Below, piece by piece: positions 808 through 36,404 of a stretch of 64,000 nucleotides of DNA. A program made the position numbers and the translations under genes. The DNA comes from Patescibacteria group bacterium (GTDB lineage Bacteria; Patescibacteriota; Patescibacteriia; UBA1558; UBA10009): assembly GCA_041662565.1 (NCBI GenBank), contig JBAZSE010000002.1, forward strand, positions 155,244 through 219,243, written 5' to 3'. Within the stretch, counting starts at the first letter, position 1; the number at the start of each line of letters is the position of its first letter. The notes beneath the pieces are model-generated. The model was not told the origin of the DNA and searched no databases. It worked only from the letters and a program-made list of their open reading frames with translations.

Positions 808-905
808 TTTGAGGAATCCGAGCGAGCGGGTCCCCCCGAGCGAGCCCAACCGAACGTAGTGAGAGTTGGGCGAGTTGAGGGAGGGTTCGAGCCGGGTCCG
901 AAAAT
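808..905. repeat. GC-rich block with two direct CCGAGCGAGC copies, in the argH 5' leader
   Basis: CCGAGCGAGC occurs at 818-827 and 836-845, and CCGAACG at 850-856. The block is about 65% GC in an AT-rich genome, and the same motifs recur at 10036-10140. Confidence 0.5.
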
Positions 906-931
906 TTTGCTTGGCCAAGCGTAGTAAAACT

Positions 932-2221
932 ATGCCTAAAATCTGGCAATCCAAATCAACCAAAATCCATCCGCTGGTAGAAAAATACACCGTAGGCAAC
1001 GATTATATATTGGATATGCGCTTGTTGCCTTTTGACGTAGAAGCATCACTAGCCCACGCAACTGCCTTGGCCAAATTAAAAATTTTAACTCCGGATGAAT
1101 TAAAAAAGCTGACTATTGGTCTAAAAGAGATTTTAAAACTCCACGCAGCCGGCAAATTTACCATTAAAATGGAAGATGAGGATTGCCATACGGCCATTGA
1201 AAATTATTTAATTGCCAAACTCGGGCCTTTAGGCAAAAAAATCCATACCGGCAGGAGCAGGAACGATCAAGTATTAGTGGCCACCCGCCTTTACACCAGA
1301 AAAAAACTTAATCAGGTTAGCGCCGAAATGATCAAGCTGGAAAAGGTGTTTTTAAACTTTGCTAAAAAATATCAGTTCGTGCCAATGCCCGGCTACACCC
1401 ATACCAGAAGGGCTATGCCCTCCTCTGTTGGGCACTGGGCGGCCGCTTACTTTGAGGAGCTAACCAACGATTACCAATTATTGCAATCCGCTTACAATTT
1501 AAACGACCAAAATCCTTTAGGCGCGGCCGCCGGCTTTGGCGTTAGTTTTAATTTGGATCGTAGATTAACCAGCAAACTTTTAAAATTCAAAAGAACTCAA
1601 GTTAATTCCATTTACGCCATTAACTCTCGCGGTAAAACCGAATCATTTATTTTAACCGTCTGCACCCAAATTATGATGACTCTGGGCCGTTTGGCTAATG
1701 AAATGATTTGGTTCACCACGCCGGAATTCAATTACTTTAACCTGCCTTGGGAATTTACCACCGGAAGTTCCATTATGCCGCAAAAACGCAATCCCGATGT
1801 GTTTGAAATTATCCGCTCTAATGTTAACGTGATCGTGGCTTTGCAAACACAGGTTAAGGATATTTCTAAAAATTTAATTTCGGGCTATAACCGCGATACC
1901 CAGCTAACCAAAGAACCATTAATTAAGGGCTTGGGAATTACCAGAAGAAGTTTGGAAATCGCCGCACTGGTAATGTCGGCCATTACACCGAATAAAAAGG
2001 ACTTAATGAAATCTTTAACACCGGAATTGTTTGCCAATAACGAAGCCAACCGCTTGGTTATGCAAGGCGTACCGTTTAGGGATGCTTACCAGCAAGTTAA
2101 AGAAAATCTGGATAAGCTAACGGTGCCCGATCCGGTTAAAGCTATTAAGGAAGTTGTTTCTTTGGGTGGCCCTGGAAATTTAAATCTTAAGGGTTACAAA
2201 ATTGATAAACCATTAAAATGA
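932..2221 (+). CDS. argH: Argininosuccinate lyase
   Basis: Fumarate-lyase signatures GRSRNDQV and GSSIMPQKRNPD are present. The ATG at 932 with MPKIWQ is preferred over the TTG at 866. Confidence 0.85.
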   Translation: MPKIWQSKSTKIHPLVEKYTVGNDYILDMRLLPFDVEASLAHATALAKLKILTPDELKKLTIGLKEILKLHAAGKFTIKMEDEDCHTAIENYLIAKLGPLGKKIHTGRSRNDQVLVATRLYTRKKLNQVSAEMIKLEKVFLNFAKKYQFVPMPGYTHTRRAMPSSVGHWAAAYFEELTNDYQLLQSAYNLNDQNPLGAAAGFGVSFNLDRRLTSKLLKFKRTQVNSIYAINSRGKTESFILTVCTQIMMTLGRLANEMIWFTTPEFNYFNLPWEFTTGSSIMPQKRNPDVFEIIRSNVNVIVALQTQVKDISKNLISGYNRDTQLTKEPLIKGLGITRRSLEIAALVMSAITPNKKDLMKSLTPELFANNEANRLVMQGVPFRDAYQQVKENLDKLTVPDPVKAIKEVVSLGGPGNLNLKGYKIDKPLK

Positions 2222-2871
2222 GATTTTTTGAAAAACAACCAAATAGCGACCCTAAGCCTTTCAAACTCGGCAAAAAAATTAAGCCAGAAAGAGGTGGTTA
2301 TTTTTCAGAAACTCCAATACGGTCTAAAAAAAATCCTGATACTTTGGTAAAAAGATTAAAAATAGAGGGTGAATATGTAGACGAAACTTTAGATAATTAT
2401 GACGTTAACACCTTTAAAGAAAGGTATCAAAAAAGTTTGCGTTTACTCGAAACTTATTTGGCAGAGTTTTTACCTAAAATGCAATTAGTATTTGGCCAAG
2501 ATAAGGACCAAAAAAAGACCGGCTATCTATTGGTCCAAGAGATTATTTCGACAAAAATTCCCAAAGAAAATCATCAAGCGACTCAACAATTAAATACTCT
2601 TCTAATAAAAATTATCGAGATGTGGCTGGCGACACAAAAAGAAAGTGACGATAAAATAGGTATAATTCCTGAACTTTCCAATATTGGCGGGAATATTATG
2701 TATGGTCATACTAAAAATGATCAGACAGACAAATTTTATGTAGTGGATATATACCCTTTGGAATATCCTAATAAACGTGAATTAATAGAAATGATGAATG
2801 AATTTTTTTCAATGAACCCAGAAATAGACTTCACCGAAACTAAAAATAAACTTAGAGAATTAGAAATGTAA
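2218..2871 (+). CDS. Hypothetical protein
   Basis: A 217-aa ORF overlaps the argH stop (ATGA) and has no recognisable motifs. The true start may be further downstream. Confidence 0.35.
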   Translation: MRFFEKQPNSDPKPFKLGKKIKPERGGYFSETPIRSKKNPDTLVKRLKIEGEYVDETLDNYDVNTFKERYQKSLRLLETYLAEFLPKMQLVFGQDKDQKKTGYLLVQEIISTKIPKENHQATQQLNTLLIKIIEMWLATQKESDDKIGIIPELSNIGGNIMYGHTKNDQTDKFYVVDIYPLEYPNKRELIEMMNEFFSMNPEIDFTETKNKLRELEM

Positions 2872-2876
2872 CAAAT

Positions 2877-3548
2877 ATGGAAAAATTCCAACAAGAATTT
2901 ATTGAATTCCTAATTACCAATAAAGCTTTGCAGTTTGGCGATTTTACTTTAAAAAGCGGAAGAAAATCCCCATACTTCATTAACACCGCGGTATTTGAAT
3001 CCGGTCAGTCAATTAAACAACTGGGCTACTTTTACGCTTCGTTAATTAAACAGGAATTTGGTTCTGACTTTGAAGTAATTTTTGGTCCGGCCTATAAAGG
3101 TATTCCTTTATGCGTTACTACCGCCATTGCCTTGGCTGATGACTTTAAAATGGACAAGTTCTACGCTTTTAACCGTAAAGAAGTTAAGGATCATGGCGAT
3201 AAAAAAATGATTGTTGGGCATCAGCTTAAAGATAACGAAAGAATTATTTTGATTGATGATGTGGTAACCGATGGCGCCACCAAGTTTGAAACCGTAGAGA
3301 TGTTAAACAATGTTGCTAAAATTAAATATACCGGCTTGATTGTGGCGGTTAACAGAATGGAAAAAACCGCCGAGGGCCTAGATGCTTTTAAAAATATTGA
3401 AGATAAACTTAACTTCCCCGTTAAAGCCATTGTCAGTGTAAGAGAAATAATTGACTATCTGACTGACAAAGAAATTAATGGCCAAATTTATTTAACCGCA
3501 TCCAAATCGCAAGAAATGGAAAATTATTTAAATGAATTTGGAAGATAA
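2877..3548 (+). CDS. pyrE: Orotate phosphoribosyltransferase
   Basis: FGDFTLKSGRKSPYF, FGPAYKGIPL, FNRKEVKDHG and the PRPP-binding LIDDVVTDGAT motif match type I OPRTase. Confidence 0.85.
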   Translation: MEKFQQEFIEFLITNKALQFGDFTLKSGRKSPYFINTAVFESGQSIKQLGYFYASLIKQEFGSDFEVIFGPAYKGIPLCVTTAIALADDFKMDKFYAFNRKEVKDHGDKKMIVGHQLKDNERIILIDDVVTDGATKFETVEMLNNVAKIKYTGLIVAVNRMEKTAEGLDAFKNIEDKLNFPVKAIVSVREIIDYLTDKEINGQIYLTASKSQEMENYLNEFGR

Positions 3549-3604
3549 AAAAGAGGTGTGAATTTTTACATTCACACCTTGCTGTTTTATTACGGTAGAT
3601 TAAA

Positions 3605-4414
3605 CTACCAAAGAAGAGTTAACCCACATTCGGAGCCAAGATCGGTTAAGTTGCCATCCCCCCCATAGAAATCGAATTTGAAGATGTCGTCAAAATACCA
3701 GAACTTAACTGAAAAATAACGGGGATCTTTACTACGAATGGCCGAACAATGAAAATTCGCAGAGAAAGATTTTTCCAAAACATCTGGAAACATTATCGAA
3801 CTAATGGCCATCTCTAGAGGACCGGAAAGAATACAGTTTTCCGGTAAGGATTCCATCTGCTCTTGCCGAGCATTCTCGGAATAACCCTGCAAACTTCCCG
3901 GAAAATAGATTCCCACAACCGGACCATTAGAGACCTTTTCGATCAGCTGTCCGTATCGACTGTTGAGTGTAATTTCAACCTGCCCCGCCAAGTTACTCGG
4001 CTCAATTTCTGACTGCCTATAACTAGGGTCTCGTCGACAATAAGAAGCGGCTGCTACTTTTATAAACTTCTTGGTGGCCTCACCAAGGTCAGCAATATCC
4101 ATCTGCGGTATAACGAACCACAAATAAACACCTTTGAGCAAGTTTTTAATCTTCTTGTCCAGTTTAATGGTCGAAAGAAGACTATTAACACGATCTTCAA
4201 CTACGTCTGGCAAGATGTCAACTGAAAATCCGACCTCCAACAGATGGGCGAGTCGTTCTTGATAGTACGGTTTGTATTGGCTCCACCCTGACTTAACGCT
4301 TGATCTAAATAAGAAATGATTTCTGTATTCAGGATGCTCAATTACAGAATTACTTACCGCCGATTTCAAATCTTGCGGCGGGATCCGACGGCCATACTTG
4401 TCAAAGAGCTGCAT
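3605..4414 (-). CDS. Hypothetical protein (orphan, GC-elevated)
   Basis: A 269-aa ORF with an AAGGAG RBS upstream of its ATG. It has no recognisable domains and interrupts the pyrE-pyrF pair on the opposite strand. Confidence 0.45.
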   Translation of the reverse strand: MQLFDKYGRRIPPQDLKSAVSNSVIEHPEYRNHFLFRSSVKSGWSQYKPYYQERLAHLLEVGFSVDILPDVVEDRVNSLLSTIKLDKKIKNLLKGVYLWFVIPQMDIADLGEATKKFIKVAAASYCRRDPSYRQSEIEPSNLAGQVEITLNSRYGQLIEKVSNGPVVGIYFPGSLQGYSENARQEQMESLPENCILSGPLEMAISSIMFPDVLEKSFSANFHCSAIRSKDPRYFSVKFWYFDDIFKFDFYGGDGNLTDLGSECGLTLLW

Positions 4415-4665
4415 TATTTACTCCTTTTCAAATTGATTCACCTACACCCTAGGCGCGGGATTATTATTTGATTGGTAAATGCCAATGTGTACAATAATAA
4501 TATATTAATATTACAAATTCAACTTTTTGTCAAGATTGACTTTTGATCGCCTAAAACCTAAAATAAACATACAAATATGGTAAAAATTGAATTAAAGAAA
4601 AATCATTTAAATTGAAAACTATTTTAAAAGTCCTTACTACAAAGGGCTTTCTTTAAAAAAAGAAT

Positions 4666-5415
4666 ATGGATTATAAAAAAAGAGCTGAAGCTTCATCAAA
4701 TCCTATAGCTAAAACTTTATTTGAATTAATGGAGAACAAACAAACCAACTTATGCTTGGCGGCTGATTTAACCGATTGGGATGAATTGATTAAATTAATT
4801 GCCACGGTTGGCTCGGAAATATGTGTTTTAAAAACACATATTGATATTATTGAAGATTTACCACCGAACTTTGCGGATAAATTAAACGATCTAAAAGAAA
4901 AATTCAATTTTTTGATTTTTGAAGACCGCAAATTCGCCGATATCGGCAATACGGTTAAAATGCAATACGAAGCCGGTATTTATAAAATCGCCGAGTGGGC
5001 CGATATTGTTAATTGCCACATTGTGCCAGGCCCGGGGATTATTGAGGGCTTGCGTGAAGTTGGCCTGCCAAAAGGCCGCGGTTTGTTACTGCTCGCTGAA
5101 ATGAGTTCACAAGGCAATTTAGCTACCGGCGATTACACTAAAACAGCCATTGAATGGGCTAAAAAATATGATGATTTTGTGATTGGCTTTATTGGCATGA
5201 AAAAATTAATTGATGATTCTAAATTTATCACCATGACTCCGGGCGTACAATTTGCTGCCACCAGCGACAACTTAAAACAACAATATAATTCGCCGGAACA
5301 AGTAATCCAAAATGGTTCGGATATTATAATTGTCGGCCGTGGCATTTATTCTTCAGCTAACCCCCAAGCCGAAGCCCAAAAATACCGTCAAGCCGGCTGG
5401 TCAGCTTTGTTATAA
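4666..5415 (+). CDS. pyrF: Orotidine 5'-phosphate decarboxylase, eukaryote/fungal URA3-like type
   Basis: FEDRKFADIGNTVK, IAEWADI, GLLLLAEMSS.GNLATG, DFVIGFI, GSDIIIVGRG and RYR.AGW are near-identical to the yeast URA3 signature blocks as recalled. Confidence 0.85.
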   Translation: MDYKKRAEASSNPIAKTLFELMENKQTNLCLAADLTDWDELIKLIATVGSEICVLKTHIDIIEDLPPNFADKLNDLKEKFNFLIFEDRKFADIGNTVKMQYEAGIYKIAEWADIVNCHIVPGPGIIEGLREVGLPKGRGLLLLAEMSSQGNLATGDYTKTAIEWAKKYDDFVIGFIGMKKLIDDSKFITMTPGVQFAATSDNLKQQYNSPEQVIQNGSDIIIVGRGIYSSANPQAEAQKYRQAGWSALL

Positions 5416-5516
5416 CGATATAAATAAGTTTAACTAAAAACAACTCTAATTTGAGTTGTTTTTTAATGAAAAAAATAGGTCTTGCGCATCCGATTGGACA
5501 CGCAAGACCTTAGAAG

Positions 5517-6008
5517 CTATTTCGAAGTCAATTGTTTGATTCTCTTTGCCGCCTGCAGAGCGAGCGGTCGAGCATCAAAATAATTGTTGAAACCGATGCT
5601 GGTCTCCCAATTGCCATCGTAACATTTTACGGTAGCAAATCTCCATGACCAGACACCGTCCACGAGCATGAAGGCGTATTCCTCTTTGGTACCGTTATTC
5701 CGGGTAAACCTTATCACCTGGCCACCAGGAATATCGTAAGTCATCCACTGACTTTCGAATCCTTCGAAATCCTGACCTTCTTGCGTATTACTGACAGTTA
5801 CGGATTGCAACTGTCTAACGGAAAGGAGAAACTGTAACCGATCTCGATCGGCGCCTGGGAGAAACATGTTAATAGCGGCTGAATCGCCGTTCACCAACGC
5901 AGACATAGCTGTCTGCTGACGAATGAGCTGGTCATCCACATCCGGATGAACCCAATACCCAATGAGGCCACAAATGACGCAGACTGCGATGCAAAGAACT
6001 ATGCGCAT
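5517..6008 (-). CDS. Hypothetical secreted protein (signal peptide; orphan, GC-elevated)
   Basis: The N-terminus MRIVLCIAVCVICGLIGYW is hydrophobic, and the start context is AGGAGCGCATCATGCGCA. No recognisable domains. Confidence 0.45.
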   Translation of the reverse strand: MRIVLCIAVCVICGLIGYWVHPDVDDQLIRQQTAMSALVNGDSAAINMFLPGADRDRLQFLLSVRQLQSVTVSNTQEGQDFEGFESQWMTYDIPGGQVIRFTRNNGTKEEYAFMLVDGVWSWRFATVKCYDGNWETSIGFNNYFDARPLALQAAKRIKQLTSK

Positions 6009-6237
6009 GATGCGCTCCTAAATTTTGCCGGCTTAAAAGCTGGCAGTGAATGAAATTGGCCTTTTTACGGGCCTATTATTTGATAACTTTGTTCAAATTA
6101 ACCTTTATTTTTAGCATACTTTATCAACTTTGTCAAGGACGCTTTAAAATGTTATAATTGGCAGCGAGAGAGAAAAGAAGGTTTACTTTCTTTTTAAACA
6201 AACGAACCAATTATACAAAGTATAATGTCGTCATTAT

Positions 6238-8874
6238 ATGTATTTACAGAAATTAGAAATTCAGGGCTTTAAATCTTTTGCCGAAAAAACCGTTTTGGAA
6301 TTTAACCGTGATCTAACAGCCGTGGTGGGCCCAAATGGCAGCGGCAAATCCAACATTGCCGATAGTGTACGGTGGGTTTTGGGCGAACAAAGCTTAAAAC
6401 TTTTGCGCGGCAAAAAATCCCAAGATGTAATTTTTGCCGGTTCTACCAATAAAGCTCGGCTGGGTTTTGCCGAAGTGTCTTTGTTTTTGAATAATGAAGA
6501 TGGCAAAGCCCCGATTGATTACCGCGAAATTGTGATAACCAGGAGAATTTACCGCGATGGCGAAACCGAATATTTGATTAATAAAAATAAAGTTCGGCTC
6601 TTAGACGTGCAAATGCTACTTGCTAAAGCCAATTTTGGAGTACGCACTTACGCCATTATTGGCCAAGGCATGATTGATTCCATTTTAACTTCATCCCCAA
6701 CCGAACGCAAAGAATTTTTTGATGAAGCCACCGGCGTTAGGGAATACCAGCTTAAAAAAGATCAGGCCATGCTTAAGCTGGAAAGAAGCAAAGAAAATTT
6801 AACCCAAGCCGAACAGCTATTGCAAGAAATAGAGCCACGGTTGCGTTCCTTAACTCGCCAGGTTAAAAGATTGGAACGCAAAGAGGAATTAACCGCCAAA
6901 TTGCGGGAACTACAAACCGTTTATTACAGCAGGCAACTGACTGTTTTGGATGAACAGCTGGCTAACATTCAAATTCAACTTAAAAATGGCGAAAAAGACC
7001 AAGCAAATTTGGAAACTCAATTGCTTAAAGGCCAGCAGGAGCTTGATCAAGAGCAATTAAACCAAACGCAGGCCCAGGCCTTTAGCTTGCTACAAAACCA
7101 ATACCAAAATTTAAGCACCGAACGCAACCGTTTAAGCCAAGAACTTTCGTTACTTAAAGCCAAGCAGGATTTAGATTTAACCAAAGCTGGAAAAGTTGAT
7201 TTGGTTTGGCTGCAAAATCGCTTGTTGGAAATTAATAATGAACAGCAAAAATTCCTTCAAGAAGAAAACAATTGCCAACAAGAACTTTTTAAATTAGAAA
7301 AATTATTAGCCACCAAAGTTGAAACCCAAAATGGGGTTTTGGCGGAATTTGAAGAGCTGCAAAATAAATTGCTGCAAAACAGGCAAAATGGTCCGGAAAA
7401 TTCCCAAGTTACCTTAAAAAAATTCCAAGAACAATTGCGCCAATTATATCAAAAACAAGCGGCTTTTATCGGGCAAATTGAAAAAATAAGCAATCTTGAA
7501 GAGTTAAAAAACATCAAAGAACTGGCGCAGGAGTTGTTGCAAAACCTTAAGCAAATGTCTGTGGATGTTGATACTGTTGGGCAAGTTTCTTCATCAATTG
7601 ATTTTAACGAACTGCAAAAACAACTGGCTGATTTTATAAAAACCAAAGATTCTTTGGTTAATGAAATTCATGGTTTAAAAATCAAAACCGAAGTAGCCAA
7701 ACAAAAATTAATTCAAACACAAACCGAACAAATCAAACTGAAAACGGAAGAAAAAAAGATTGTTGCCGAACTTTCGACTTATCAAAACCAAGGCAAACAA
7801 ATTGATAACGCTGATTTAAAAAATCGGCAAACGGAACTGGAACAGGCCATGGCCAAAATTGACGGACAAGTTGGCGAACTAAAAATAAAATTGGAAACTT
7901 TTTCGGCCAGCCAAGAACAGGAACGGCATAAATTCATGGAACTGCAACGCGGTTTACGAGAAACGCAAAGCAAGTTAAATTTGGTTAGCGCACAACTTAA
8001 CGGTTTAAAGGTTGAGCTGGCTCGGCTGGAAACCAAAAAAGAAGATTTAGGCAACGAGATCAAAACCGAATTTATCGGAGAATTTGTATTGCAAACAAAT
8101 CCGGAACCGCTCAATTTAAATGAACTTTTGGCCGAAATTAACCGTTACAAAAATCAACTCTCCATTATCGGGGGGATTGATGAAGATGTGGCTAAAGAAT
8201 ATGCCGAAGTGAATGAACGCTACGTTTTCTTAAATGAGCAGGTTACTGATTTACAAGGAGCCATTGAATCGTGCTTACAGATTATTGAAGAATTGGACCA
8301 AAAAATTACCAGCCAGTTTGAAGTAGCTTTTGAAAAAATCAACGAAAAATTTGAACATTATTTTAAAATCCTCTTTAATGGCGGACAAGCTAAGCTGACT
8401 TTGGAAAAGAAAGTTATTACCGAGGAAGTAGTGGAGCAAGAAACTCTTGAATCCAATCCGGTTGCTAAAGCCAAACCCAAAATTGAAGACAAAAGATTAA
8501 AAACCAAAATTGAATTTGGCATTGAAATCCAAGCCACGCCTCCGGGCAAACGGCTAAAATCAATCAATACCCTTTCGGGCGGTGAAAAGGCCTTAACTTC
8601 CATTGCCCTAATTTCCGCCATTATTGCCAACAACCCTTCGCCTTTTGTAATCTTAGATGAGGTAGATGCCGCTTTAGATGAATCCAATTCCATTAGGTTT
8701 GCCAGCATTGTTAAAGAACTTTCCACTCAAGCGCAATTTATCTGTGTGACCCACAACCGCGCCACCATGCATCAGGCCGCTATTTTGTACGGCGTAACCA
8801 TGGGCGCAGATGGCATTTCCAAACTTCTCTCCATTAACTTAACGGAAGCCGAAAAAGTAGCCGAAACCAGCTAA
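6238..8874 (+). CDS. smc: SMC-like chromosome segregation ATPase (878 aa, no recognisable hinge domain)
   Basis: The N-terminus LEIQGFKSF with Walker A GPNGSGKSN, and the C-terminal signature LSGGEKALTS, Walker B ILDEVDAALD and H-loop CVTHN, are all present. The whole middle is coiled coil. Confidence 0.7.
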   Translation: MYLQKLEIQGFKSFAEKTVLEFNRDLTAVVGPNGSGKSNIADSVRWVLGEQSLKLLRGKKSQDVIFAGSTNKARLGFAEVSLFLNNEDGKAPIDYREIVITRRIYRDGETEYLINKNKVRLLDVQMLLAKANFGVRTYAIIGQGMIDSILTSSPTERKEFFDEATGVREYQLKKDQAMLKLERSKENLTQAEQLLQEIEPRLRSLTRQVKRLERKEELTAKLRELQTVYYSRQLTVLDEQLANIQIQLKNGEKDQANLETQLLKGQQELDQEQLNQTQAQAFSLLQNQYQNLSTERNRLSQELSLLKAKQDLDLTKAGKVDLVWLQNRLLEINNEQQKFLQEENNCQQELFKLEKLLATKVETQNGVLAEFEELQNKLLQNRQNGPENSQVTLKKFQEQLRQLYQKQAAFIGQIEKISNLEELKNIKELAQELLQNLKQMSVDVDTVGQVSSSIDFNELQKQLADFIKTKDSLVNEIHGLKIKTEVAKQKLIQTQTEQIKLKTEEKKIVAELSTYQNQGKQIDNADLKNRQTELEQAMAKIDGQVGELKIKLETFSASQEQERHKFMELQRGLRETQSKLNLVSAQLNGLKVELARLETKKEDLGNEIKTEFIGEFVLQTNPEPLNLNELLAEINRYKNQLSIIGGIDEDVAKEYAEVNERYVFLNEQVTDLQGAIESCLQIIEELDQKITSQFEVAFEKINEKFEHYFKILFNGGQAKLTLEKKVITEEVVEQETLESNPVAKAKPKIEDKRLKTKIEFGIEIQATPPGKRLKSINTLSGGEKALTSIALISAIIANNPSPFVILDEVDAALDESNSIRFASIVKELSTQAQFICVTHNRATMHQAAILYGVTMGADGISKLLSINLTEAEKVAETS

Positions 8875-8896
8875 GTAGGCAAGAGCAAGCGGGATC

Positions 8897-8924
8897 TTGA
8901 CAAATACCGGCTTTCCATTATAAT
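8897..8924 (+). promoter_or_regulatory. Sigma70-like promoter upstream of rpsP
   Basis: TTGACA is followed by a 16-nt spacer and TATAAT. Confidence 0.5.
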
Positions 8925-9015
8925 ACCCACTAATGCTGCAGTAGTGCTCTCGCCTTTGCCCCATGAGGGAAAAAACCAACGGCGAAAATTTATAATCATC
9001 ATTTATTAATTTACT

Positions 9016-9486
9016 ATGTTATCAATTAGATTCTCTCGCACAGGCAAGAAAAAACAGCCCTATTTTAGGGTTATTCTTACGGAAAAGCAAAAAGATCCTT
9101 GGGGCAAATATATCGAACTTTTGGGCAACTATAACCCCAGGAGCAAAGAAACCAATTTAAAAACTGACCGTATCAAATACTGGCTTTCGGTTGGCGCTCA
9201 AGCCACTACCAGCATCCATAACTTATTAGTTAAGGTAGGTGCCATAGAAGGCAAAAAGAAAAATCCGGTTAGAGTTTCTAAAGTTAGAAAAGTTAAGTTA
9301 GATGCCAAAAAGAAAGAAACTTCGGATGCTTTGGCTAAAACTGAAAAAGATGCTTTAGACGCTAAAGCCAAGGCGGAACAAGATGCCCAAGATGCTAAAG
9401 CTGCCGCAGAAGCCCCTCAAGAATCAACAGAACAAGTTTCTCCGGTTGTTGAAGAAAAAGCCGATGAACCGGTTGTTACTGCCTAA
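9016..9486 (+). CDS. rpsP: 30S ribosomal protein S16 with Lys/Ala/Asp/Glu-rich C-terminal extension
   Basis: MLSIRFSRTGKKKQPYFRV is the S16 N-terminal signature, and a roughly 70-aa low-complexity charged tail follows. Confidence 0.9.
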   Translation: MLSIRFSRTGKKKQPYFRVILTEKQKDPWGKYIELLGNYNPRSKETNLKTDRIKYWLSVGAQATTSIHNLLVKVGAIEGKKKNPVRVSKVRKVKLDAKKKETSDALAKTEKDALDAKAKAEQDAQDAKAAAEAPQESTEQVSPVVEEKADEPVVTA

Positions 9487-9622
9487 AAAAATTCAGAATT
9501 GACAGGGTAATAACAATAAGCTAATATAATAAAAGTTCTTTAAAAAGACAATTTTCCTTTCAATTTAAGTCCCTGAAGGGAAAACTGAGCTTGTAAGAAT
9601 TTATCATTAACAGTTGAAAAAC

Positions 9623-9970
9623 ATGTCCGACAAAGATCAAGAGTTCCTGGAGTATGTTGTCAAAAATTTAGTTGACACTCCGGATAAAGTCAACGTTGAT
9701 AGAACGGTTGACGAGATGGGAGTCCTATTGACTCTTAAAGTGGATCCATCCGATATGGGTCAAATTATTGGCAGGCAGGGTCAAACCGCCAGAGCCATCC
9801 GCACTTTGTTGCGCGTGGTTGGTGCCAAAAATAACGCCCGCGTTAACTTAAAGATTTTTGAACCAGAAGGTTCTACCAGAGGACCCAGAATGATGAGGAG
9901 CAATGACTCCAATCAAGGTTCCAGAACAGAAGATATTGACACTAGCGTTGTTGATGACTTGAAATTGTAA
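9623..9970 (+). CDS. KH-domain RNA-binding protein (YlqC-like)
   Basis: The KH motif IIGRQGQTARAIRTLL is present and the gene sits canonically between rpsP and trmD. The ATG at 9623 is preferred over the TTG at 9614. Confidence 0.7.
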   Translation: MSDKDQEFLEYVVKNLVDTPDKVNVDRTVDEMGVLLTLKVDPSDMGQIIGRQGQTARAIRTLLRVVGAKNNARVNLKIFEPEGSTRGPRMMRSNDSNQGSRTEDIDTSVVDDLKL

Positions 9971-10035
9971 TTTCAAATTATCTCTATAAAATTTAAGAAC
10001 CTCACTTTTATCGGTGAGGTTCTTATGTTAAGATA

Positions 10036-10140: not shown

Positions 10141-10147
10141 AAAAAAT

Positions 10148-23300: not shown

Positions 23301-23317
23301 ATCGAGCTAAGCTCGAT
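23301..23317. repeat. Palindromic repeat family copy (ATCGAGCTAAGCTCGAT) within a compound palindrome at 23291-23326
   Basis: A perfect 17-bp palindrome, flanked by further TCGAG/CTCGA half-sites. Confidence 0.6.
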
Positions 23318-25942: not shown

Positions 25943-26023
25943 TGGATAAACAGGAAATCCTTCAGTCGCGTGTGCTCCTTCAGGATGACAGCAAAGAATT
26001 AACATTTTAACTAATTGTTAACA

Positions 26024-28840
26024 ATGAACAAAGGTAACGAGAAATTCATAATCATTGACGGCAATGCCCTGTTGCACCGCGCTTGGCACGCTTTGCCGCC
26101 CATGACTTTAAAAGACGGAACTATGGTTAATGCCGCTTACGGCTTTACTTCCATCTTATTAAAAATAATCAAAGAGCTTAAGCCGAATTATATTTGCTCG
26201 GCCTTTGACCGCAAGGGCGTTTCCAAACGGACCGAAATGTTTACTTCGTATAAAGCCCAGCGCGTTAAACAGCCCGACGAGCTTTACGCCCAAATCCCGA
26301 TTATTGAACAAATTCTCAAGGCCTTTAACATCCCAGTGGTTGATGCCCAGGAAGAGGGTTATGAGGCCGATGATGTGATCGGCACCATTATTACTCATCT
26401 TAAAAAAACCCAACCCGAGTTGCATAAATTTATTGTCACCGGCGATTTGGACGCTTTGCAATTGGTTGATCAACAAACCGAGGTCTTTACTTTAAAAAAA
26501 GGCATTTCCGAAACCTTTACCTATAATATCAATGCGGTTAAAGATCGCTATGGCCTAACCCCGGATCAATTAATCGATTTTAAGGCGTTAAGAGGTGATC
26601 CTTCGGATAATATTCCGGGCGTTAAAGGTATTGGCGAAAAATCCGCCACCCAACTGATTCAACAGTTCGGCTCGCTGGAAAAACTTTATGAAAAATTAGA
26701 ACAATCCAAGGTTAAAGATCGGCTTAAAGAACTGTTAATCACCCAAAAAAAAGATGCCCTTTTAAGCAAAGAATTGGTGACAATCAAAACCGATCTTAAA
26801 ACCAACTTTAAATTGGCCGAAACCAAAATTCAGGGCTTTGATGTTAATGAGGTGATAAAAATTTTTACCCATCTGGAATTTAAAAGCTTAATGAATAAAA
26901 TTCCTTCTGAATTATCCGGCAAGATGGAAACAAAAAATATCCAGGAAGCGGATGCAAAACCAACAACCGAGCAATCAAATACAGGGGGGCAGGGCGCGAT
27001 GGATTTTATGTCCATTACTAAAGCGCCTTCCTCTGAATTTTTTGATTATCGCCTGGTAAATACCAACGAAAAATTTCAAAAATTTTTAACTGAATTAAAA
27101 AATCAAACCGAATTCGCTTTGGATAGCGAAACTACCGGCCTAAACGTTTGGCAGGCAAAAATTTTAGGGCTAAGTTTTTCTTGGAAACCAGGTTTGGCCT
27201 ATTACTTGGATATTGCATCTAATTTGCCTTGGCTAAATGAACTTAAACCGATTTTGGAAAATCCCAACATTAAAAAAATCGGTCACAATTTAAAATACGA
27301 TTATGAAATGCTGATGCAAAACGGCATTATCATGGCCGGCTTGGATTTTGACACCATGCTCGGCGCTTATTTGCTTACCTCCGGCAACCGCAATTTGGAT
27401 TTGGACAGTTTGGTTTTTTCGGAACTTGGCCACCAAATGCAACCCATTACCGATTTAATCGGACCAAAAGGCAAGGATCAATTAAATATGTCGGCGGTAG
27501 CCGTGGAACGAGTATCCTGGTATGCGGCCGAAGATGCGGATTTTACTCTGCGGTTGGCTAAAAAATTAAAACCGGAGTTGGAAAAAATTTCCGACTTAGG
27601 CGCGTCCCGAGCGGAGTCGAGGGGCCTGATGGAAAAAATTGAAATGCCCCTAATTGCCGTGTTGGCTAAAATGGAGCAAACCGGCATTAAAATCGACCAG
27701 GAATTTTTAAAACAACTAAATCAAAAATTTACCGGGGAAATTAAATCAATTGAAAATAAAGTTTACGAAATAGCCGGCCAAGAGTTCAACATCGCTTCGC
27801 CTCTACAGCTCAAAGAAATTTTGTTTGACCGTTTAAAAATCGATATCAAGGGTTTAAAAAAAATAAAAACCGGCATTTCCACCGCTGCCGGCGAGCTTGA
27901 AAAATTAAAAGATCGGCATCCGATTATCCCTTACATCAGCAATTTTAGGGAATATTCCAAACTGCAAAACACTTATACCCAAACCTTGCCTTTGCAGGCC
28001 GATAAACATGATAGAATCCATACCAGCTTTAACCAAACCATTGCCGCAACCGGCCGGCTTTCTTCATCCGATCCTAATTTGCAAAATATTCCCATTAGAA
28101 CAGAGCTAGGGCGCGAAATCCGCAAAGCTTTTATTGCGGAGAAAGGAAATTTATTGATTTCGGCCGACTATTCGCAAATAGAACTAAGAGTTATCGCCTC
28201 ATTAGCCAGTGATGAAAAAATGATCGCCTATTTTAACAACAATGAAGACATCCATGCCCGAACAGCCGCCGATATAAATAAATTGCCAATTTCTGAAGTT
28301 ACCAAAGATATGCGCCGGGCGGCTAAAGAAGTTAATTTTGGCGTTATCTATGGCCTGGGCTATGTTGGCTTAGCTGCGCGCACCGGCATTACTCGCGAAG
28401 AAGCCAAAAGCTTTATTGCCCGCTACTTTGAATTGTATCCGCAAATTAAAAACTGGTTAGTTGAAACCAAAGAATTAGCGGCTAAACACGGTTATGTAGA
28501 AACGCTTTTGGGTAGAAGAAGATATTTGCCGGAAATTCACTCCGGCGTACCCATGATCCGCGCCAGCGCGGAACGCATGGCCATTAATGCCCCTATCCAG
28601 GGCACAGCCGCCGATTTACTAAAAATGGCGATGATTGCTATTCACCAAGAATTGCCAAAAATCTGTTTGAATGCCAAGCTGTTGTTAACCGTCCACGATG
28701 AACTGGTATTGGAAGCACCGGAAAACGAAGCCCAAAAAGTGGCCGACTTTGTAAAAAACAAAATGGAAAATATTTACTCTCTTAAAGTGCCTATTGTGGC
28801 CGAAGTGCATTTGGGCCATAATTGGGGAGAAACAAAATAA
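26024..28840 (+). CDS. polA: DNA polymerase I
   Basis: The 5'-3' exonuclease N-terminus (IIDGNALLHRAWHA), a 3'-5' exonuclease domain, and the polymerase motifs DYSQIELR and HDELVLE are all present. Confidence 0.9.
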   Translation: MNKGNEKFIIIDGNALLHRAWHALPPMTLKDGTMVNAAYGFTSILLKIIKELKPNYICSAFDRKGVSKRTEMFTSYKAQRVKQPDELYAQIPIIEQILKAFNIPVVDAQEEGYEADDVIGTIITHLKKTQPELHKFIVTGDLDALQLVDQQTEVFTLKKGISETFTYNINAVKDRYGLTPDQLIDFKALRGDPSDNIPGVKGIGEKSATQLIQQFGSLEKLYEKLEQSKVKDRLKELLITQKKDALLSKELVTIKTDLKTNFKLAETKIQGFDVNEVIKIFTHLEFKSLMNKIPSELSGKMETKNIQEADAKPTTEQSNTGGQGAMDFMSITKAPSSEFFDYRLVNTNEKFQKFLTELKNQTEFALDSETTGLNVWQAKILGLSFSWKPGLAYYLDIASNLPWLNELKPILENPNIKKIGHNLKYDYEMLMQNGIIMAGLDFDTMLGAYLLTSGNRNLDLDSLVFSELGHQMQPITDLIGPKGKDQLNMSAVAVERVSWYAAEDADFTLRLAKKLKPELEKISDLGASRAESRGLMEKIEMPLIAVLAKMEQTGIKIDQEFLKQLNQKFTGEIKSIENKVYEIAGQEFNIASPLQLKEILFDRLKIDIKGLKKIKTGISTAAGELEKLKDRHPIIPYISNFREYSKLQNTYTQTLPLQADKHDRIHTSFNQTIAATGRLSSSDPNLQNIPIRTELGREIRKAFIAEKGNLLISADYSQIELRVIASLASDEKMIAYFNNNEDIHARTAADINKLPISEVTKDMRRAAKEVNFGVIYGLGYVGLAARTGITREEAKSFIARYFELYPQIKNWLVETKELAAKHGYVETLLGRRRYLPEIHSGVPMIRASAERMAINAPIQGTAADLLKMAMIAIHQELPKICLNAKLLLTVHDELVLEAPENEAQKVADFVKNKMENIYSLKVPIVAEVHLGHNWGETK
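27604..27629. repeat. GC-rich motif CCCGAGCGGAGTCGAGGGGCCTGAT embedded in frame in polA
   Basis: It is near-identical to 35753-35778 in femAB and encodes the residues SRAESRGLM. Confidence 0.6.
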
Positions 28841-30200: not shown

Positions 30201-31379
30201 CTATCTTAAAAACCCCTCCAAATACCCTTGATTAATAACCTTTAAGGCCTCCAAAGGTATAATTAAATTTTGTCCAAAATTATTGTTAGTTAATTGGTCT
30301 AATTTAATTGCCTGTTCTAAATTAAAAGACCCAATAGCTGTTCTTTTTAACTCCCAGAGAACCGCGCCAACACCCAATTTTTGCCCAAGATCATAAGCTA
30401 AAGTTCTAATATAAGTACCGGACGAACATTTAACTTTAATATTAAAAATATCATCTTTTAAGCCCAAAAATTCAATCTTATAAATTTCAATCTCATTTGG
30501 CTTTCTTTCTATTTCTTTGCCTTGCCTGGCCAAATCATATAATTTTTTACCCCCAACCTTTTTTGCCGAATACATTGGCGGAATCTGTAATTGCTTGCCG
30601 ATAAAACTACTTAGTATTTCTTTTAATTGATTGACATCGGTTTTAAGCTTTATCGAGCTGAGCTCGATTAAGTTTTGAGCTTTAAGTTGTCCGGTTCTAT
30701 CATAAGTATCCGAAATAATTCCCAATTTGATAGTGGCTTCATATGTCTTAGGTAATAAATCAAACATCCCCACCATTTTAGTGGCATTGCCAATAGCGCA
30801 AATTAACAAACCAGTAGCAAAGGGATCTAGCGTGCCAGTGTGCCCTATTTGTTTTATTTTGGTGATGGATCTAAGTTTGGCCACCACATCATGCGAAGTC
30901 CAGTTGGATTCTTTATCCAGCAATAAAAATCCGGTCTTATCATCTTCATCGAGCTGAGCTCGATCAATGGCTTTGCGAAGATTCTTACCTTTGCAAAAAT
31001 CTTCTTTAAACGAAACTAATCTTTTAATATCAAAATGAAGTTTTGAATTTGCCCTTAAATCAATCAAACCTTCAACAAAGGCCTGTTGATCGTAACCTAA
31101 AGCAATAATATCCGGTTTTTCTTGAATAATCATTTTATACGGATCAACTACATCGCCTAAAATAACTTTATCAACCAAACCAAGTTTTTTTAAATTCTCC
31201 ACCCGATCCGCTTCATTAAAATATGATTCTCGGCCTTTAACTTTAATTACATTTTGGTCGCGGGCAATTATAGCAACAATAAAATCCCCTAGCTCTTTTG
31301 CTTGTTTTATTAAATTCAAATGGCCAGGATGGATAATATCAAAAGTTCCTGTAATTAATACTTTAGTCATTATTGACAA
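30201..31379 (-). CDS. truB: Fusion protein: RibL/FAD-synthetase-like cytidylyltransferase-fold domain (N-terminal) plus tRNA pseudouridine55 synthase TruB (C-terminal)
   Basis: The N-terminus GTFDIIHPGHLNLIKQAKELGD is the HxGH nucleotidyltransferase motif. The C-terminus DKESNWTSHDVVAKLR...GHTGTLDPFATGLL is the TruB catalytic region. Two palindromic repeat copies lie in frame. Confidence 0.75.
   Translation of the reverse strand: MSIMTKVLITGTFDIIHPGHLNLIKQAKELGDFIVAIIARDQNVIKVKGRESYFNEADRVENLKKLGLVDKVILGDVVDPYKMIIQEKPDIIALGYDQQAFVEGLIDLRANSKLHFDIKRLVSFKEDFCKGKNLRKAIDRAQLDEDDKTGFLLLDKESNWTSHDVVAKLRSITKIKQIGHTGTLDPFATGLLICAIGNATKMVGMFDLLPKTYEATIKLGIISDTYDRTGQLKAQNLIELSSIKLKTDVNQLKEILSSFIGKQLQIPPMYSAKKVGGKKLYDLARQGKEIERKPNEIEIYKIEFLGLKDDIFNIKVKCSSGTYIRTLAYDLGQKLGVGAVLWELKRTAIGSFNLEQAIKLDQLTNNNFGQNLIIPLEALKVINQGYLEGFLR
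30652..30668. repeat. Palindromic repeat copy (ATCGAGCTGAGCTCGAT) in frame in the TruB domain
   Basis: A perfect 17-bp palindrome that encodes IELSS. Confidence 0.65.
30948..30964. repeat. Palindromic repeat copy (ATCGAGCTGAGCTCGAT) in frame in the RibL-TruB linker
   Basis: A perfect 17-bp palindrome that encodes IDRAQLDE. Confidence 0.65.
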
Positions 31380-34571: not shown

Positions 34572-34793
34572 TAATAACTCCAATTGGTTGTTTGCTAACT
34601 AGCTACTCTGTAGCCATAGCCAATAAACCTCAATGTTTAAGATCTTTTGGCTATGGCTACTTAAAAATTGCCAATAAAATTAAAAGAACTATTTTAATAA
34701 ATCAAAATATCATATTATTAATCATTTGTCAAGAATATCCAAAATTACTTTTAGTATGTATAATACTATTAACTAAATAACCTATTTGCTTAA

Positions 34794-35375
34794 ATGATCT
34801 CCTACCTCAAAGGCACAATCTTTGTTAAAAAGTCCAAATACCTGATTCTTTTAGTTAACAACATTGGCTATGAAGTTTTTGCCAGTGAAAAAACTTTGTC
34901 ATTGTTAAACGAATCGGCCGAGGTCTCATTATATATTCATCATCACATTTCCGAAACATCACAAGATCTTTACGGATTCATAAACCAGCCCGAATTGGAA
35001 ATGTTTAAAAACTTAATTAGCATCTCGGGTGTTGGCCCTAAAAGCGCTCTTGGCGTAATGGCCAGTGCCAGCGTGGAAGATATTATCCAGGCCATTTTAT
35101 CGGAAGACCCTGCATTGCTTAGAACCGTTTCCGGCATTGGCCCCAAAACCGCCGAACGCATTGTAGTGGAGTTAAAATCCAAAATTGGTAAATTAGGAAA
35201 AGAAATGAATATTCAAGACGCTTCTGTGGCGCCCAGGGATATTGAAACCATAGAAGCTTTAATCGGCCTTGGCTATTCCCGTAAAGAAGTTATGGAAGTT
35301 ATCAGACAAGTGTCTGCGGAAATTACAGATACTTCCGGCAGAATTAAAGGTGCGTTAAAATTACTGGCCAAATAA
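34794..35375 (+). CDS. ruvA: Holliday junction branch-migration protein RuvA
   Basis: The N-terminus MISYLKG and two HhH motifs (ISGVGPKSAL, VSGIGPKTAERI). Confidence 0.85.
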   Translation: MISYLKGTIFVKKSKYLILLVNNIGYEVFASEKTLSLLNESAEVSLYIHHHISETSQDLYGFINQPELEMFKNLISISGVGPKSALGVMASASVEDIIQAILSEDPALLRTVSGIGPKTAERIVVELKSKIGKLGKEMNIQDASVAPRDIETIEALIGLGYSRKEVMEVIRQVSAEITDTSGRIKGALKLLAK

Positions 35376-36404
35376 ATGGAACTTAAATTAATCAGCCAAC
35401 AAGAGTTGAATAACTTTGTTGCTACCCAGCCACACTCTCAATTACTCCAATCTTACTCTTGGGGCGAATTTAACAAAACTCTTGATCACCATCTTTGGCG
35501 CCTAGGGATTTTTAACAATGAACAAATAGTTGCTTGCGCTACGATTATTAATAATAAATTGCCTTTGCAAAAAAGCTATCTTTATTGCCCGCGCGGACCG
35601 ATTTTTAGCCAAGAACTTAATGAAGCAAAAAAAGAAACAGCTTTAAAATTAATTTTCAGCAAAACCCGCGATATTACCATTGCCACCCGCAAGAGCGAAG
35701 AAATTTTTTTCCGTTTTGAACCGATTTTTGAATTACAAAATTCAAAAATCGCCCCGAGCGAAGTCGAGGGGTCTCGATTAATCAAAACGAAATCCATTCA
35801 ACCACCTAACACTCTGATACTGGATTTAAGCCAATCGACCGAATCGCTCTTGGCCAGCTTTCATTCCAAAACCCGCTACAACATCAAATTGGCGGAAAAG
35901 CACGGACTAACCATCAGTAAACTAACGGCTGATGATTTTACCAAATGCTGGCCACTGTTCAAACAAACCAGTGAACGAGACACTTTTGGCCTGCATTCAC
36001 AAAGCTATTATCAGACCATGTTGACTACAGTGCCGGAAGTAGAACTCTGGGTTGCCAGAAACCAAAATAATGCTATAATAGCCGCAAATCTAATGAGTTT
36101 TTACGGTGATACGGTTACTTATCTGCATGGCGCCTCCGACTATCAAAATCGCAATTTGATGGCACCCTACCTCTTACACTGGACGCTGATTCAAGAAGCG
36201 CAAAGTAGGGGCTTTAAATATTATGACTGGCACGGCATTGCGCCAGAAAGCGAAACCAACCATCCCTGGGCCGGAGTAACCAGATTTAAAAAAGGTTTTG
36301 GCGGAGAACCAACAACTTACGCCGGTACTTATGATTTTATTTACGAAACTGGTTGGTACAAATTGTATAAAGTTTTCAGAAAAATAAACCGAATTATTAA
36401 ATAA
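35376..36404 (+). CDS. FemAB-family peptidoglycan interpeptide-bridge aminoacyltransferase
   Basis: The length and fold signature (LQSYSWGEF, two GNAT-like halves) fit the family. It contains an in-frame GC-rich motif. Confidence 0.65.
   Translation: MELKLISQQELNNFVATQPHSQLLQSYSWGEFNKTLDHHLWRLGIFNNEQIVACATIINNKLPLQKSYLYCPRGPIFSQELNEAKKETALKLIFSKTRDITIATRKSEEIFFRFEPIFELQNSKIAPSEVEGSRLIKTKSIQPPNTLILDLSQSTESLLASFHSKTRYNIKLAEKHGLTISKLTADDFTKCWPLFKQTSERDTFGLHSQSYYQTMLTTVPEVELWVARNQNNAIIAANLMSFYGDTVTYLHGASDYQNRNLMAPYLLHWTLIQEAQSRGFKYYDWHGIAPESETNHPWAGVTRFKKGFGGEPTTYAGTYDFIYETGWYKLYKVFRKINRIIK
35753..35778. repeat. GC-rich motif CCCGAGCGAAGTCGAGGGGTCTCGAT embedded in frame in femAB
   Basis: It matches the polA copy at 22 of 25 positions and encodes PSEVEGSRL. 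Confidence 0.6.

Follow-up and report, generated by a model that had tools for sequence, protein, structure and literature searches.

The stretch of DNA analyzed here, referred to throughout as the window, comprises 64,000 nucleotides of a Patescibacteria group bacterium (contig JBAZSE010000002.1 of GenBank assembly GCA_041662565.1), and the subject of this report is a short GC-rich sequence that lies inside two of its genes, polA (open reading frame (ORF) 26015-28840) and a gene of the FemAB family (ORF 35376-36404; femAB below). An earlier note on this DNA, made from the letters alone, had remarked that the two segments share 22 of 25 nt, and so they do, in the register 27603-27627 versus 35750-35774, the coordinates given at the time being 1-3 nt off. 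The 22-mer CCCGAGCGRAGTCGAGGGGYCT has exactly two copies in the window, at 27606-27627 and 35753-35774, both on the + strand. The note had also drawn attention to GC-rich segments amid genes of 40% GC, and the measured values are ∼79% GC for the two genic units and 40.1% for the window. The copies are translated in different reading frames, tCC CGA GCG GAG TCG AGG GG (SRAESRG) in polA and CCG AGC GAA GTC GAG GGG (PSEVEG, or PSEVEGS with the next codon) in femAB, which argues for an element that acts at the level of DNA or RNA. The 18-mer pattern CCGAGCGNAGTCGAGGGG is free of stop codons in all six frames, except that NAG becomes TAG in one frame when N = T. Could the likeness of the two segments be fortuitous, a chance resemblance between GC-rich coding sequences, or even an artefact of assembly or contamination? 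GC-rich 24-nt islands are indeed frequent in the conserved genes of the window; against such an origin, none of 100 dinucleotide-preserving shuffles yields any match to CCCGAGCGRAGTCGAGGGGYCT, even at 3 mismatches, the unit recurs at both orthologous and new sites in assemblies that are independent and come from different samples, and the reading frames are preserved. We consider this explanation effectively refuted.

In polA, the 24-nt unit GCGTC-CCGAGCGGAGTCGAGGGG-C lies at 27602-27625 (+ strand) and supplies codons 530-537 (ASRAESRG), with a boundary that is ambiguous by 3 nt, GGC standing on both sides. Among the best 120 PolA homologues listed (52-100% identity), ASRAESRG is found only in the window protein and is absent from the other 119, nearly all of which run ...L(x)G LL.K.E.PL... 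without a gap. The empty site can be read in a relative, L123 (GCA_026396575.1; loci from other genomes are given L numbers here), as AAT TTA GGG / CTG TTA (AATTTAGGG/CTGTTA), and in comparison the window sequence GAC TTA GGC [GCGTCCCGAGCGGAGTCGAGGGGC] CTG ATG contains a clean 24-nt addition. As an observation on the protein family, one PolA homologue (P0027, 1342 aa) contains intein/LAGLIDADG domains (PF14528, PF14890), and the PolA family is thus host to in-frame selfish insertions of another kind as well.

In femAB, the 24-nt unit GCC-CCGAGCGAAGTCGAGGGG-TCT occupies 35751-35774 (+ strand), with boundaries good to ∼3 nt, and supplies codons 126-133 (APSEVEGS) in a length-variable region; the peptide is missing from most FemAB orthologs, and the site is empty in L123 and L125. 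The same DNA unit is present at the same codon in two orthologs, L121 (GTCGCCCCGAGCGGAGCCGAGGGGCC) and L122 (GTCGCCCCGAGCGAAGTCAAGGGGCC), whose proteins are 63% and 58% identical to that of the window by BLASTP (∼64% when aligned), and the femAB gene of L124 (2463-3479) has at this place a different GC palindrome of exactly 24 nt, TGCCTGCCGGCAGGCACGGCGCGA. The earlier note had held that the same peptide in distant orthologs would speak against a repeat; what the two FemAB orthologs share with the window is instead the DNA motif. Over the whole gene, the three carriers agree at 51-55% of third codon positions, yet within the unit these positions are invariant (8/8), and the substitutions within it are all non-synonymous and fall mostly at the family-variable positions, that is, at the base N and at an extra or bulged T. 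Frozen third positions and exclusively non-synonymous changes indicate that the carriers share a DNA motif and not a conserved peptide. Directly 5' of the unit stands an 11-bp perfect AT-rich palindrome, ATTTTTGAATT-ACAA-AATTCAAAAAT (35724-35749, + strand), which L121 and L122 retain, differing from the window by a single compensatory double change, and which may be a mark of the target site or part of a composite hairpin. L121 and L122 have a 40-nt identical run across this palindrome and the start of the unit, their next longest run being 20 nt and the longest runs in all other pairs of femAB orthologs 14-27 nt. From these sequence comparisons, the femAB pattern argues against selection at the protein level, and selection on the nucleotides, recombination or repeated insertion at a hot spot would remain as candidate causes.

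A third genic unit comes from L123, whose uvrB gene reads AAA ACC [TTG TCC CGA GCG GAG CCG AGG GGG] GGC AAA; the bracketed 24 nt add LSRAEPRG and are absent from the UvrB of the window and of L125. Three housekeeping genes (polA, femAB and uvrB) therefore each carry a sense-strand 24-nt addition, read as SRAE[S/P]RG in PolA and UvrB and as PSEVEG in FemAB. The proposal of the earlier note, a small repeat family that enters proteins without breaking the frame, is borne out by these 8-codon insertions, which ortholog alignment displays at both the PolA and the FemAB site, and by the UvrB unit of the relative. In AlphaFold2 models of the two window proteins, the insertions sit where the models are least certain: the PolA exonuclease-plus-polymerase fragment has a mean predicted local distance difference test (pLDDT) score of 90, and its sole internal segment with pLDDT <50 is residues 198-204, the insert being residues 201-208 in a loop flanked by helices 168-198 and 205-227; the FemAB model has a mean pLDDT of 93 and falls below 50 internally only at residues 127-131, within the coil 115-134. 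The insertions being the only internal low-confidence segments in both models, the 8-residue additions sit in exposed loops. One could ask whether the inserted residues are an adaptive feature of the proteins, for example a surface epitope or a regulatory loop in PolA or FemAB; they are in frame and retained, and Di Nocera et al. (2013; PMC3733652) speculated that insertions of repetitive extragenic palindromic (REP) sequences might modify repair proteins. The frames and peptides differ between genes, however, the changes in the femAB unit are without exception non-synonymous and its synonymous sites are frozen, the added residues are predicted to be disordered loops, and nearly all orthologs do without them, so that we would be very surprised if this explanation were correct.

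What kind of sequence is the unit? Each copy consists of a leader of 5-6 nt, often YGTC (CGTC in polA, TGTC in the uvrB gene of L123), and an 18-nt hairpin in which a conserved 12-nt core, GAGCGNAG(T)CGA, is enclosed by a short Watson-Crick stem (CCC/GGG in polA and femAB). The stem was examined in 44 distinct copies that match only the core GAGCGNAGTCGA; copies picked by the scan pattern were excluded, such that the stems themselves are unselected. Five flanking positions are paired in 89% of cells as compared with 72% in shuffles, a value that 0 of 500 shuffles reach; double-sided stem changes number 62 versus 23 in shuffles, the covariation score is 0.51 versus 0.20, and when the partner is slid by 1-3 columns, pairing falls to 32-48%. 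Covariation thus backs 4-5 flanking pairs, and the stems seen include CCC/GGG, CCT/AGG, GTC/GAC, GCC/GGC and GGT/ACC. In other words, the unit is a hairpin with a variable, covarying outer stem around a conserved core. A frequent form is TGTC-AT-CCC-GAGCGNAGTCGA-GGG-AT-C; among the loci listed, the 5' consensus of 123 copies extends to G-Y-T-Y-R-Y-C, and the flanks are often complementary to each other or have an inverted copy 20-60 nt away. In a covariance model made from these 44 copies, the two genic copies, both members of its training set, score E = 1e-8 to 1e-7 (1e-7 for polA).

The core itself, GA-GC-GNA-G(T)C-GA, would by its sequence form tandem G.A pairs, two G-C pairs and a GNA triloop, that is, a d(GCGNAGC) mini-hairpin with one extra T, and d/r(CCCGAGCGGAGTCGAGGGG) is the putative hairpin-forming stretch of the unit. 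The d(GCGNAGC)/d(GCGNNAGC) mini-hairpin was described by Hirao and colleagues and is reviewed in PMC13037366, according to which only GNA loops form the structure, with melting temperatures (Tm) in the order N = A>G>C>T. Family copies that lack the T, GAGCGAAGCGA, contain GCGNAGC exactly, and a copy at 17359-17378 on the minus strand holds GCGTAAGC, of the mini-hairpin form GCGNNAGC; the polA and femAB copies differ in that they read GCGNAG-T-C with the extra T. The loop base N is A in 89, G in 51, C in 42 and T in 20 of the genome copies listed, and A in 36, G in 33, C in 18 and T in 7 in viral contigs, an order of usage that is identical to the published order of Tm (PMC13037366). Unlike the present units, the mini-hairpin is a structural motif, neither a repeat family nor a mobile element.

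The family is not confined to the window or to its phylum, and the further genomic copies that the earlier note had looked for are plentiful. A scan of genomes, one per species, for CCGAGCGNAGTCGAGGGG returned at least 120 loci, in Bacteroidota, Acidobacteriota, Sphingomonadales, Myxococcota, Planctomycetota, Ignavibacteriota and Spirochaetota as well as in other lineages of the candidate phyla radiation (CPR; Doudna-, Vogel- and Terrybacteria), and the host genomes of the loci listed range from 33 to 74% GC. The motif-centred loci listed (875 kb) hold ∼82 extra core-bearing copies, many of them in inverted pairs. In viral contigs the 18-mer has 48 loci, and in two contigs, IMGVR_UViG_2731639222_000001 (L231, L213) and IMGVR_UViG_3300036393_000033 (L210, L250), there are 5-6 copies per contig, all on the same strand. 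In the former contig, the left half-stem, (CGTTCCCCG)n, and the right half, (AGGAGTCGAGGGG)n, are expanded in tandem around the copies.

A further question is that of function; is the hairpin a cis-acting RNA or single-stranded DNA (ssDNA) element that is under selection in mRNAs, for processing, stability, pausing or the binding of a host factor, and neither selfish nor neutral? The earlier note had offered a conserved RNA-level signal as its alternative to a repeat, and several observations favor it: the stem covaries around a conserved core, the third positions of the femAB unit are frozen, the 40-nt run in L121 and L122 goes together with a compensatory change in the adjoining palindrome, the genic copies in CPR genomes (polA, femAB and uvrB) are all on the sense strand, and some phage contigs keep their copies on one strand. 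On the other side, the motif is missing from most orthologs of PolA, FemAB and UvrB, close relatives included, and it must therefore be dispensable for these genes. Intergenic copies in low-GC genomes, among the loci listed, have no orientation bias relative to the flanking genes (of those between co-directional genes, 10 are sense and 7 antisense, and convergent and divergent gene pairs enclose 8 and 6); genic copies, several of them doubtful N-terminal cases, are 9 sense and 3 antisense, which is not significant, and the antisense ones occur in L001 and L053. A gathering-threshold scan of the whole window against Rfam 15 found nothing at the motif, argH or trmD sites, a permissive E-value scan of 600-10400 (the argH and trmD blocks, see below) gave only chance-level matches, and the GNA triloop typifies the stability of DNA rather than RNA (PMC13037366). 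On balance, we regard a functional hairpin of this kind as unlikely.

Another alternative does without transposition; gene conversion, template switching or the templated repair of short patches could copy a small hairpin from elsewhere in the genome into breaks or into sites prone to hairpins, or the unit could arise again and again through convergence on the thermodynamically optimal mini-hairpin. Several observations are in keeping with this possibility. No target-site duplication, conserved target or linked transposase is seen, short palindromes adjoin the insertion points, the preference for N parallels hairpin stability, and the tandem half-stem expansions of the phage copies are typical of slippage. 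In three non-sister lineages the femAB loop is occupied by the motif, in L124 by another palindrome, and such re-use suggests a site-specific hot spot. Convergence would be hard pressed, however, to reach an identity of 18-24 nt across phyla that includes an unpaired leader and an extra T, and the discrete length of 24 nt in all three independent genic events fits templated repair and convergence poorly. Additionally, we know of no established precedent for templated hairpin copying in bacteria. We rate this explanation, too, as improbable.

We think it probable that the two genic motifs are copies of a 24-nt interspersed palindromic repeat of REP type that is mobilized and then filtered by selection. 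Under this hypothesis, a non-autonomous hairpin repeat would spread in trans as ssDNA with the help of an enzyme from the host or from a mobile element, for which a Y1/HUH transposase resembling the REP-associated tyrosine transposases (RAYTs) is the leading candidate. Copies would enter the chromosome at different times; those that survive in genes would be the ones of whole-codon length (24 nt), without a stop and in a tolerant surface loop, and the protein would gain 8 extra residues whose identity is set by the frame that was hit. To judge from the ortholog alignments, the polA copy would be recent and private to the source lineage, and the femAB copy older or recurrent. The repeat status of the motif, the clean 24-nt additions in frame, their place in loops, the covarying hairpin and the wide taxonomic range are observed; the enzyme, the single-stranded intermediate and the standing of the copies as neutral or functional are the parts of this account that we infer.

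A number of points weigh against it. The window has only 2 strict copies in 64 kb. The window contains no transposase, as judged by Pfam on 55 ORFs (top 25 families) and by tblastn with the RAYT-like protein of L124 introduced below, which also finds no Y1 transposase near the motif loci listed (at least 120); no target-site duplication or shared target sequence is evident at the three insertion sites in polA, femAB and uvrB, and the published REPs of the CGTC class "apparently lack a dedicated transposase" (PMC3733652). By nearest-neighbour folding, the isolated 24-nt units are indistinct from shuffles (z = +0.7 for the polA copy), and the claim of a hairpin thus rests on covariation and not on energy; the low folding score is consistent with the finding that standard parameters cannot account for the stability of the mini-hairpin (PMC13037366). 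The neighbour-joining tree of FemAB is star-like, without bootstrap, and the carriers are not sisters, such that one ancient gain with losses and repeated gains are inseparable. The femAB unit, moreover, looks constrained, and a functional element or recombination fits it better than passive junk does.

With respect to the enzyme that a mobilized repeat would need, RAYT-like Y1 (IS200-like) transposase genes are found in two related CPR contigs, L124 (281-859, minus strand) and L133 (2243-2788, minus strand). For the L124 protein, the Pfam Y1_Tnp score of 29.4 bits exceeds the cutoff (23 bits) and the NCBIfam REP_Tyr_transpos score of 48.6 bits falls short of it (80 bits); the L133 homologue is found by tblastn at 1e-30. 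The L124 gene is 1.6 kb from ruvA-femAB, and that of L133 is 1.5 kb from an element upstream of trmD that resembles the one in the window; the unit is absent from the flanks of both genes. Co-localization of such genes with the unit was considered and set aside, the tblastn matches being only those in L124 and L133, with none in the window or in the loci listed. Because REPs are dispersed, the missing co-localization is uninformative rather than negative. An association with GIY-YIG nucleases was dropped, such a gene being nearby in only 2 of the ∼120 loci listed. As observations in their own right, L083 has, ∼350 nt from an ORF that resembles GIY-YIG nucleases, 27-nt units in tandem array (AATGTCACCCCGAGCGTAGTCGAGGGG, ∼6240-6320), and in L076 a unit stands 48 nt upstream of another GIY-YIG ORF.

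The window also contains relatives of the genic units. The core pattern has 4 sites (10053+, 27609+, 35756+ and 17363-) where 0.8 are expected, the core form CGA[AG]CG.AG has 6 where 1.3 are expected, and TGTCAT[TC]C[CT]GA has 3 where 0.04 are expected. The most conspicuous relative lies upstream of trmD, where the earlier note had described an inverted repeat of roughly 105 bp; the element is real, measures ∼102 nt (10040-10141) and folds at -32 to -34 kcal/mol (z = -7.7 to -8.4). It is a head-to-head dimer with 11-bp terminal inverted repeats, TGTCATTCCGA, made up of a left unit at 10040-10076 (+ strand), TGTC-ATTCC-GACCGAACGAAGCGAGTGGA-GGAAT-CCC, which is a TGTC-tagged relative of the motif, and a right, inverted unit at 10099-10141 (minus strand), TGTCATTCCGAGCGAGCCCCAAAGGGGCGAGCCGAGGAATCCC. 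The covariance model matches its left arm (10039-10078) at E ∼0.04. The closest relatives, L126 and L128, lack the element and have only a plain terminator hairpin there, and the more distant L133 has a comparable TGTCAT...ATGACA element in that position upstream of trmD. The right end of the window element (…GGAATGACA, ATGACA) brings in an ATG at 10136, by which the trmD ORF becomes 4 codons longer (MTKN); since trmD of the relatives starts at the equivalent of the ATG at 10148 (MQF…), the annotated start at 10136 is probably an artefact of the repeat. Despite the terminal inverted repeats, one criterion of miniature inverted-repeat transposable elements, no duplication of the flanking bases is evident at the trmD element; the genic 24-nt units have neither terminal inverted repeats nor a target-site duplication, apart from the ambiguous GGC...GGC in polA.

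The kinship of the second 5' leader, that of argH, is looser. Between an upstream ORF (stop at 785) and argH, a GC-rich block at 813-900 (+ strand) forms a nested imperfect hairpin around GCCCAAC-CGAACGTAGTGAGA-GTTGGGC and contains two CCGAGCGAGC words and the core-like CGAACGTAG. The 11-mer TCCGAGCGAGC is common to this block and the trmD element (817+ and 10125-; 2 found versus 0.01 expected), yet the block has no significant fold (808-905; z = 0.14), and as a candidate member of the family it was rejected, the covariance model not detecting 808-905. Of the earlier idea that related modules build both leaders, the kinship of the trmD element and the TCCGAGCGAGC link hold up, and the CCGAACG and GGAATCC modules do not, their counts being near chance (5 versus 4.8 and 11 versus 7.7 expected). 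In short, the relation of the trmD element to the family is good and that of the argH block only loose.

Further family-like hairpins are found elsewhere in the window. Just after tRNA-Phe, the copy at 17359-17378 (minus strand) reads GTCC-GA-GC-GTAA-GC-GA-GGAC with the GCGNNAGC core (z = -2.7 on the minus and -1.0 on the plus strand) and is nested in a longer hairpin at ∼17349-17389; it is followed at 17404-17431 (+ strand) by the hairpin GGTGCCTT-GAGCAAAGCCGA-AAGGCACC with a core-like loop (z = -2.4; covariance-model match to 17402-17433 at E ∼0.1). A perfect palindrome, CCCTGAACCATATGGTTCAGGG, at 17322-17343 stands between tRNA-Ile/tRNA-Phe and these two hairpins. A TGTC-tagged unit, TGTCATCCTGAAGGAGCACACGCGACTGAAGGATTTCC, is situated in the spacer upstream of polA (25953-25990, minus strand; model match 25952-25991 at E ∼0.04), and one more match, to coding sequence at 35825-35859 (minus strand), is probably fortuitous.

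A separate family in the window is the perfect palindrome TCGAGCTGAGCTCGA, presumably the first repeat family of the earlier reader, with 6 copies at no more than 1 mismatch (15016-15030, 23302-23316, 30653-30667, 30949-30963, 42958-42972 and 61842-61856). Two of them are inside a gene for a CTP-transferase/TruB fusion (30201-31379, minus strand): compared with L123 and L125, the copy at 30949 adds 18 nt cleanly and in frame (DRAQLD), and the copy at 30653 (IELSSI) is in a variable loop. The corresponding gene of L123 (5889-7049) contains an in-frame, TGTC-tagged palindrome, TTGTCCTCCGAAGCTCGGAGAGCGAAGGGGG, and in the two relatives L123 (TruB) and L124 (FemAB) the same loops are thus occupied, in frame, by short GC palindromes of another kind. 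The variable loops of the TruB fusion and of FemAB look like hot spots.

As for the wider setting, the region 15335-17313 has the 16S rRNA gene and, after it, tRNA-Ile and tRNA-Phe; the absence of a 23S or 5S gene from the 64 kb indicates an unlinked rRNA arrangement, and four more tRNAs are present. One of these, tRNA-Cys (25076-25150, minus strand), is abutted at its 5' end by a 90-bp tandem repeat (25165-25330; 1.9 copies, 93% matches) whose units end in (G)ATACGTGGCCA, like the first bases of the tRNA, GGCTACGTGGCC, and which could be a leftover of integration or duplication at the tRNA. The segment 48172-48243 matches the DUF3800-II RNA of Rfam (RF02961; 50.2 bits versus a gathering score of 43.2). 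Cumulative GC skew climbs to a maximum near 20 kb and then declines steadily to the end of the window; this turn may be a switch of the replication terminus or origin type, or an effect of gene orientation.

A more far-reaching idea goes beyond a mobilized repeat, and we put it forward as speculation with a small chance of being right: the core GAGCGNAG(T)CGA and its stem might be a pan-bacterial, phage-borne module under purifying selection at the nucleotide level, read by a conserved factor that processes single-stranded nucleic acid, and the recurrence of polA, uvrB and truB in unrelated phyla, to which ultra-small CPR genomes are now added, might reflect a mechanistic link to replication and repair, and not mere tolerance of loops. 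The idea stems from the frozen synonymous sites of femAB and from the 40-nt identical tract between diverged carriers. If it is true, the link would come about, for example, through insertion at ssDNA exposed during repair or through regulation of these genes.

Returning to the mobilized, REP-type repeat that we favor, intragenic palindromic repeats of REP-like nature are known from other bacteria; the lineage and the type of sequence are new. A literal search for the motif strings across 8 million papers gave no match, and no description of REPs in CPR bacteria was found in the searchable literature, the lone paper that names both not being, by its title and abstract, about REPs in CPR. The phenomenon is thereby extended to Patescibacteria/CPR, whose genomes of <1 Mb are usually deemed poor in repeats. 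The genes polA, uvrB and truB belong to classes whose choice as targets in Proteobacteria, Verrucomicrobia and Rickettsia had been noted as puzzling (PMC3733652), and their recurrence at such a distance sharpens the question of mechanism versus tolerance. The compact core GAGCGNAG(T)CGA inside its covarying stem is easy to search for, is common to several phyla and to phages, and offers a handle on how "transposase-less" REPs of CGTC type are mobilized. There are practical consequences as well for the annotation and alignment of CPR genomes, for example 8-residue indels in marker proteins and a spurious start codon in trmD.

How do these units compare with known systems? The mobile GC clusters of yeast mitochondrial DNA are GC-rich palindromes of 30-50 bp in a eukaryotic organelle and are occasionally in frame in coding sequence; they are like the present units in that GC palindromes are scattered over an AT-rich genome, and they differ in sequence and in the proposed mechanism of insertion. 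The Rickettsia palindromic element RPE-1, reportedly described by Ogata et al. in 2000 as "selfish DNA in protein-coding genes", is said to measure 100-150 bp and to encode 30-50 aa. It resembles the present case as a palindromic repeat that is in frame in housekeeping genes of a small AT-rich genome, surface-exposed and tolerated. RPE-1 is restricted to a genus, however, and is not similarly GC-rich, whereas the present unit has 24 nt (8 aa) and a core that is found across phyla; only the in-frame behaviour is common to the two, and the units do not qualify as RPE-1.

Closer in architecture are the GTAG REPs and REP doublets forming hairpins (REPINs), which are associated with RAYTs (TnpA-REP, Y1 HUH; Nunvar 2010, PMC2817692; Quentin 2018, PMC6006769). 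An unpaired 5' tetranucleotide, an imperfect hairpin and inverted dimers are common to these and to the present units, and in-frame REP insertions are documented, even within tnpA-REP genes. The units here nevertheless have no GT[AG]G tag, no RAYT gene flanked by them was found, and GTAG REP sequences are species-specific, whereas the present core is shared across phyla.

The nearest relatives appear to be in the second of the two superfamilies, GTAG- and CGTC-tagged, into which REPs were split by Di Nocera et al. (2013; PMC3733652), who did not include CPR/Patescibacteria among their taxa. CGTC REPs, whose tag may also be TGTC or CCTC, have 8-9-bp stems that begin with AT, loops of 4-5 nt and a CCA tail; they are mostly intergenic head-to-head dimers, occur in five phyla and include RPE-4 and RPE-6 of Rickettsia and dRS3 of Neisseria, and single intragenic units encode 8-9 aa, e.g. 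VIPAKAGI, and are notable in DNA polymerase I, UvrA/B/C, UvrD, RecBCD, DnaE2 and TruB (PMC3733652). Points in common are the size (published ∼24-27 nt), the GC-rich hairpin, head-to-head dimers (the trmD element and pairs of Sphingomonas type), intragenic units of 8 aa (PolA, FemAB and the UvrB of L123) in the same classes of genes (PolA and UvrB here, and TruB fusions with other palindromes), the spread over several phyla and the lack of an adjacent transposase. In the window, the load is 2 strict copies and 4-5 relatives in 64 kb, with one head-to-head dimer. The tag is recognizable in polA (gCGTC/CCGAG), in the uvrB gene of L123 (tTGTC/CCGAG) and, as TGTC-AT, in the trmD element and the minus-strand unit ending at 25990, and the femAB copies have CGCC; among the loci listed, the consensus at -4 to -1 is Y-R-Y-C, with T at -2 in 34 of 123 copies, and 74 of 202 copies have YGTC no more than 10 nt upstream. 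The differences concern the stem, the loop, the tail and the peptides. In place of a stem of 8-9 bp that starts A-T then T-A, polA and femAB have CCC/GGG, tandem G.A and 2 GC pairs; the AT start, absent from these two, is seen in the trmD element, in the 25953-25990 unit and in numerous copies from other genomes. The apical loop is GNA, of 3 nt, or has 11-12 nt if the core is counted as loop, and the tails are CCT (polA), TCT (femAB) and GGG (the uvrB of L123), position +1 being C or T in 100 of 123 copies listed, with no CCA consensus. None of the published intragenic peptides (PMC3733652) corresponds to the present core. With size, dimers and target genes in common and with a different stem, loop and tail, we file the units as REP-like elements that are nearest to the CGTC superfamily and are putative members of it.

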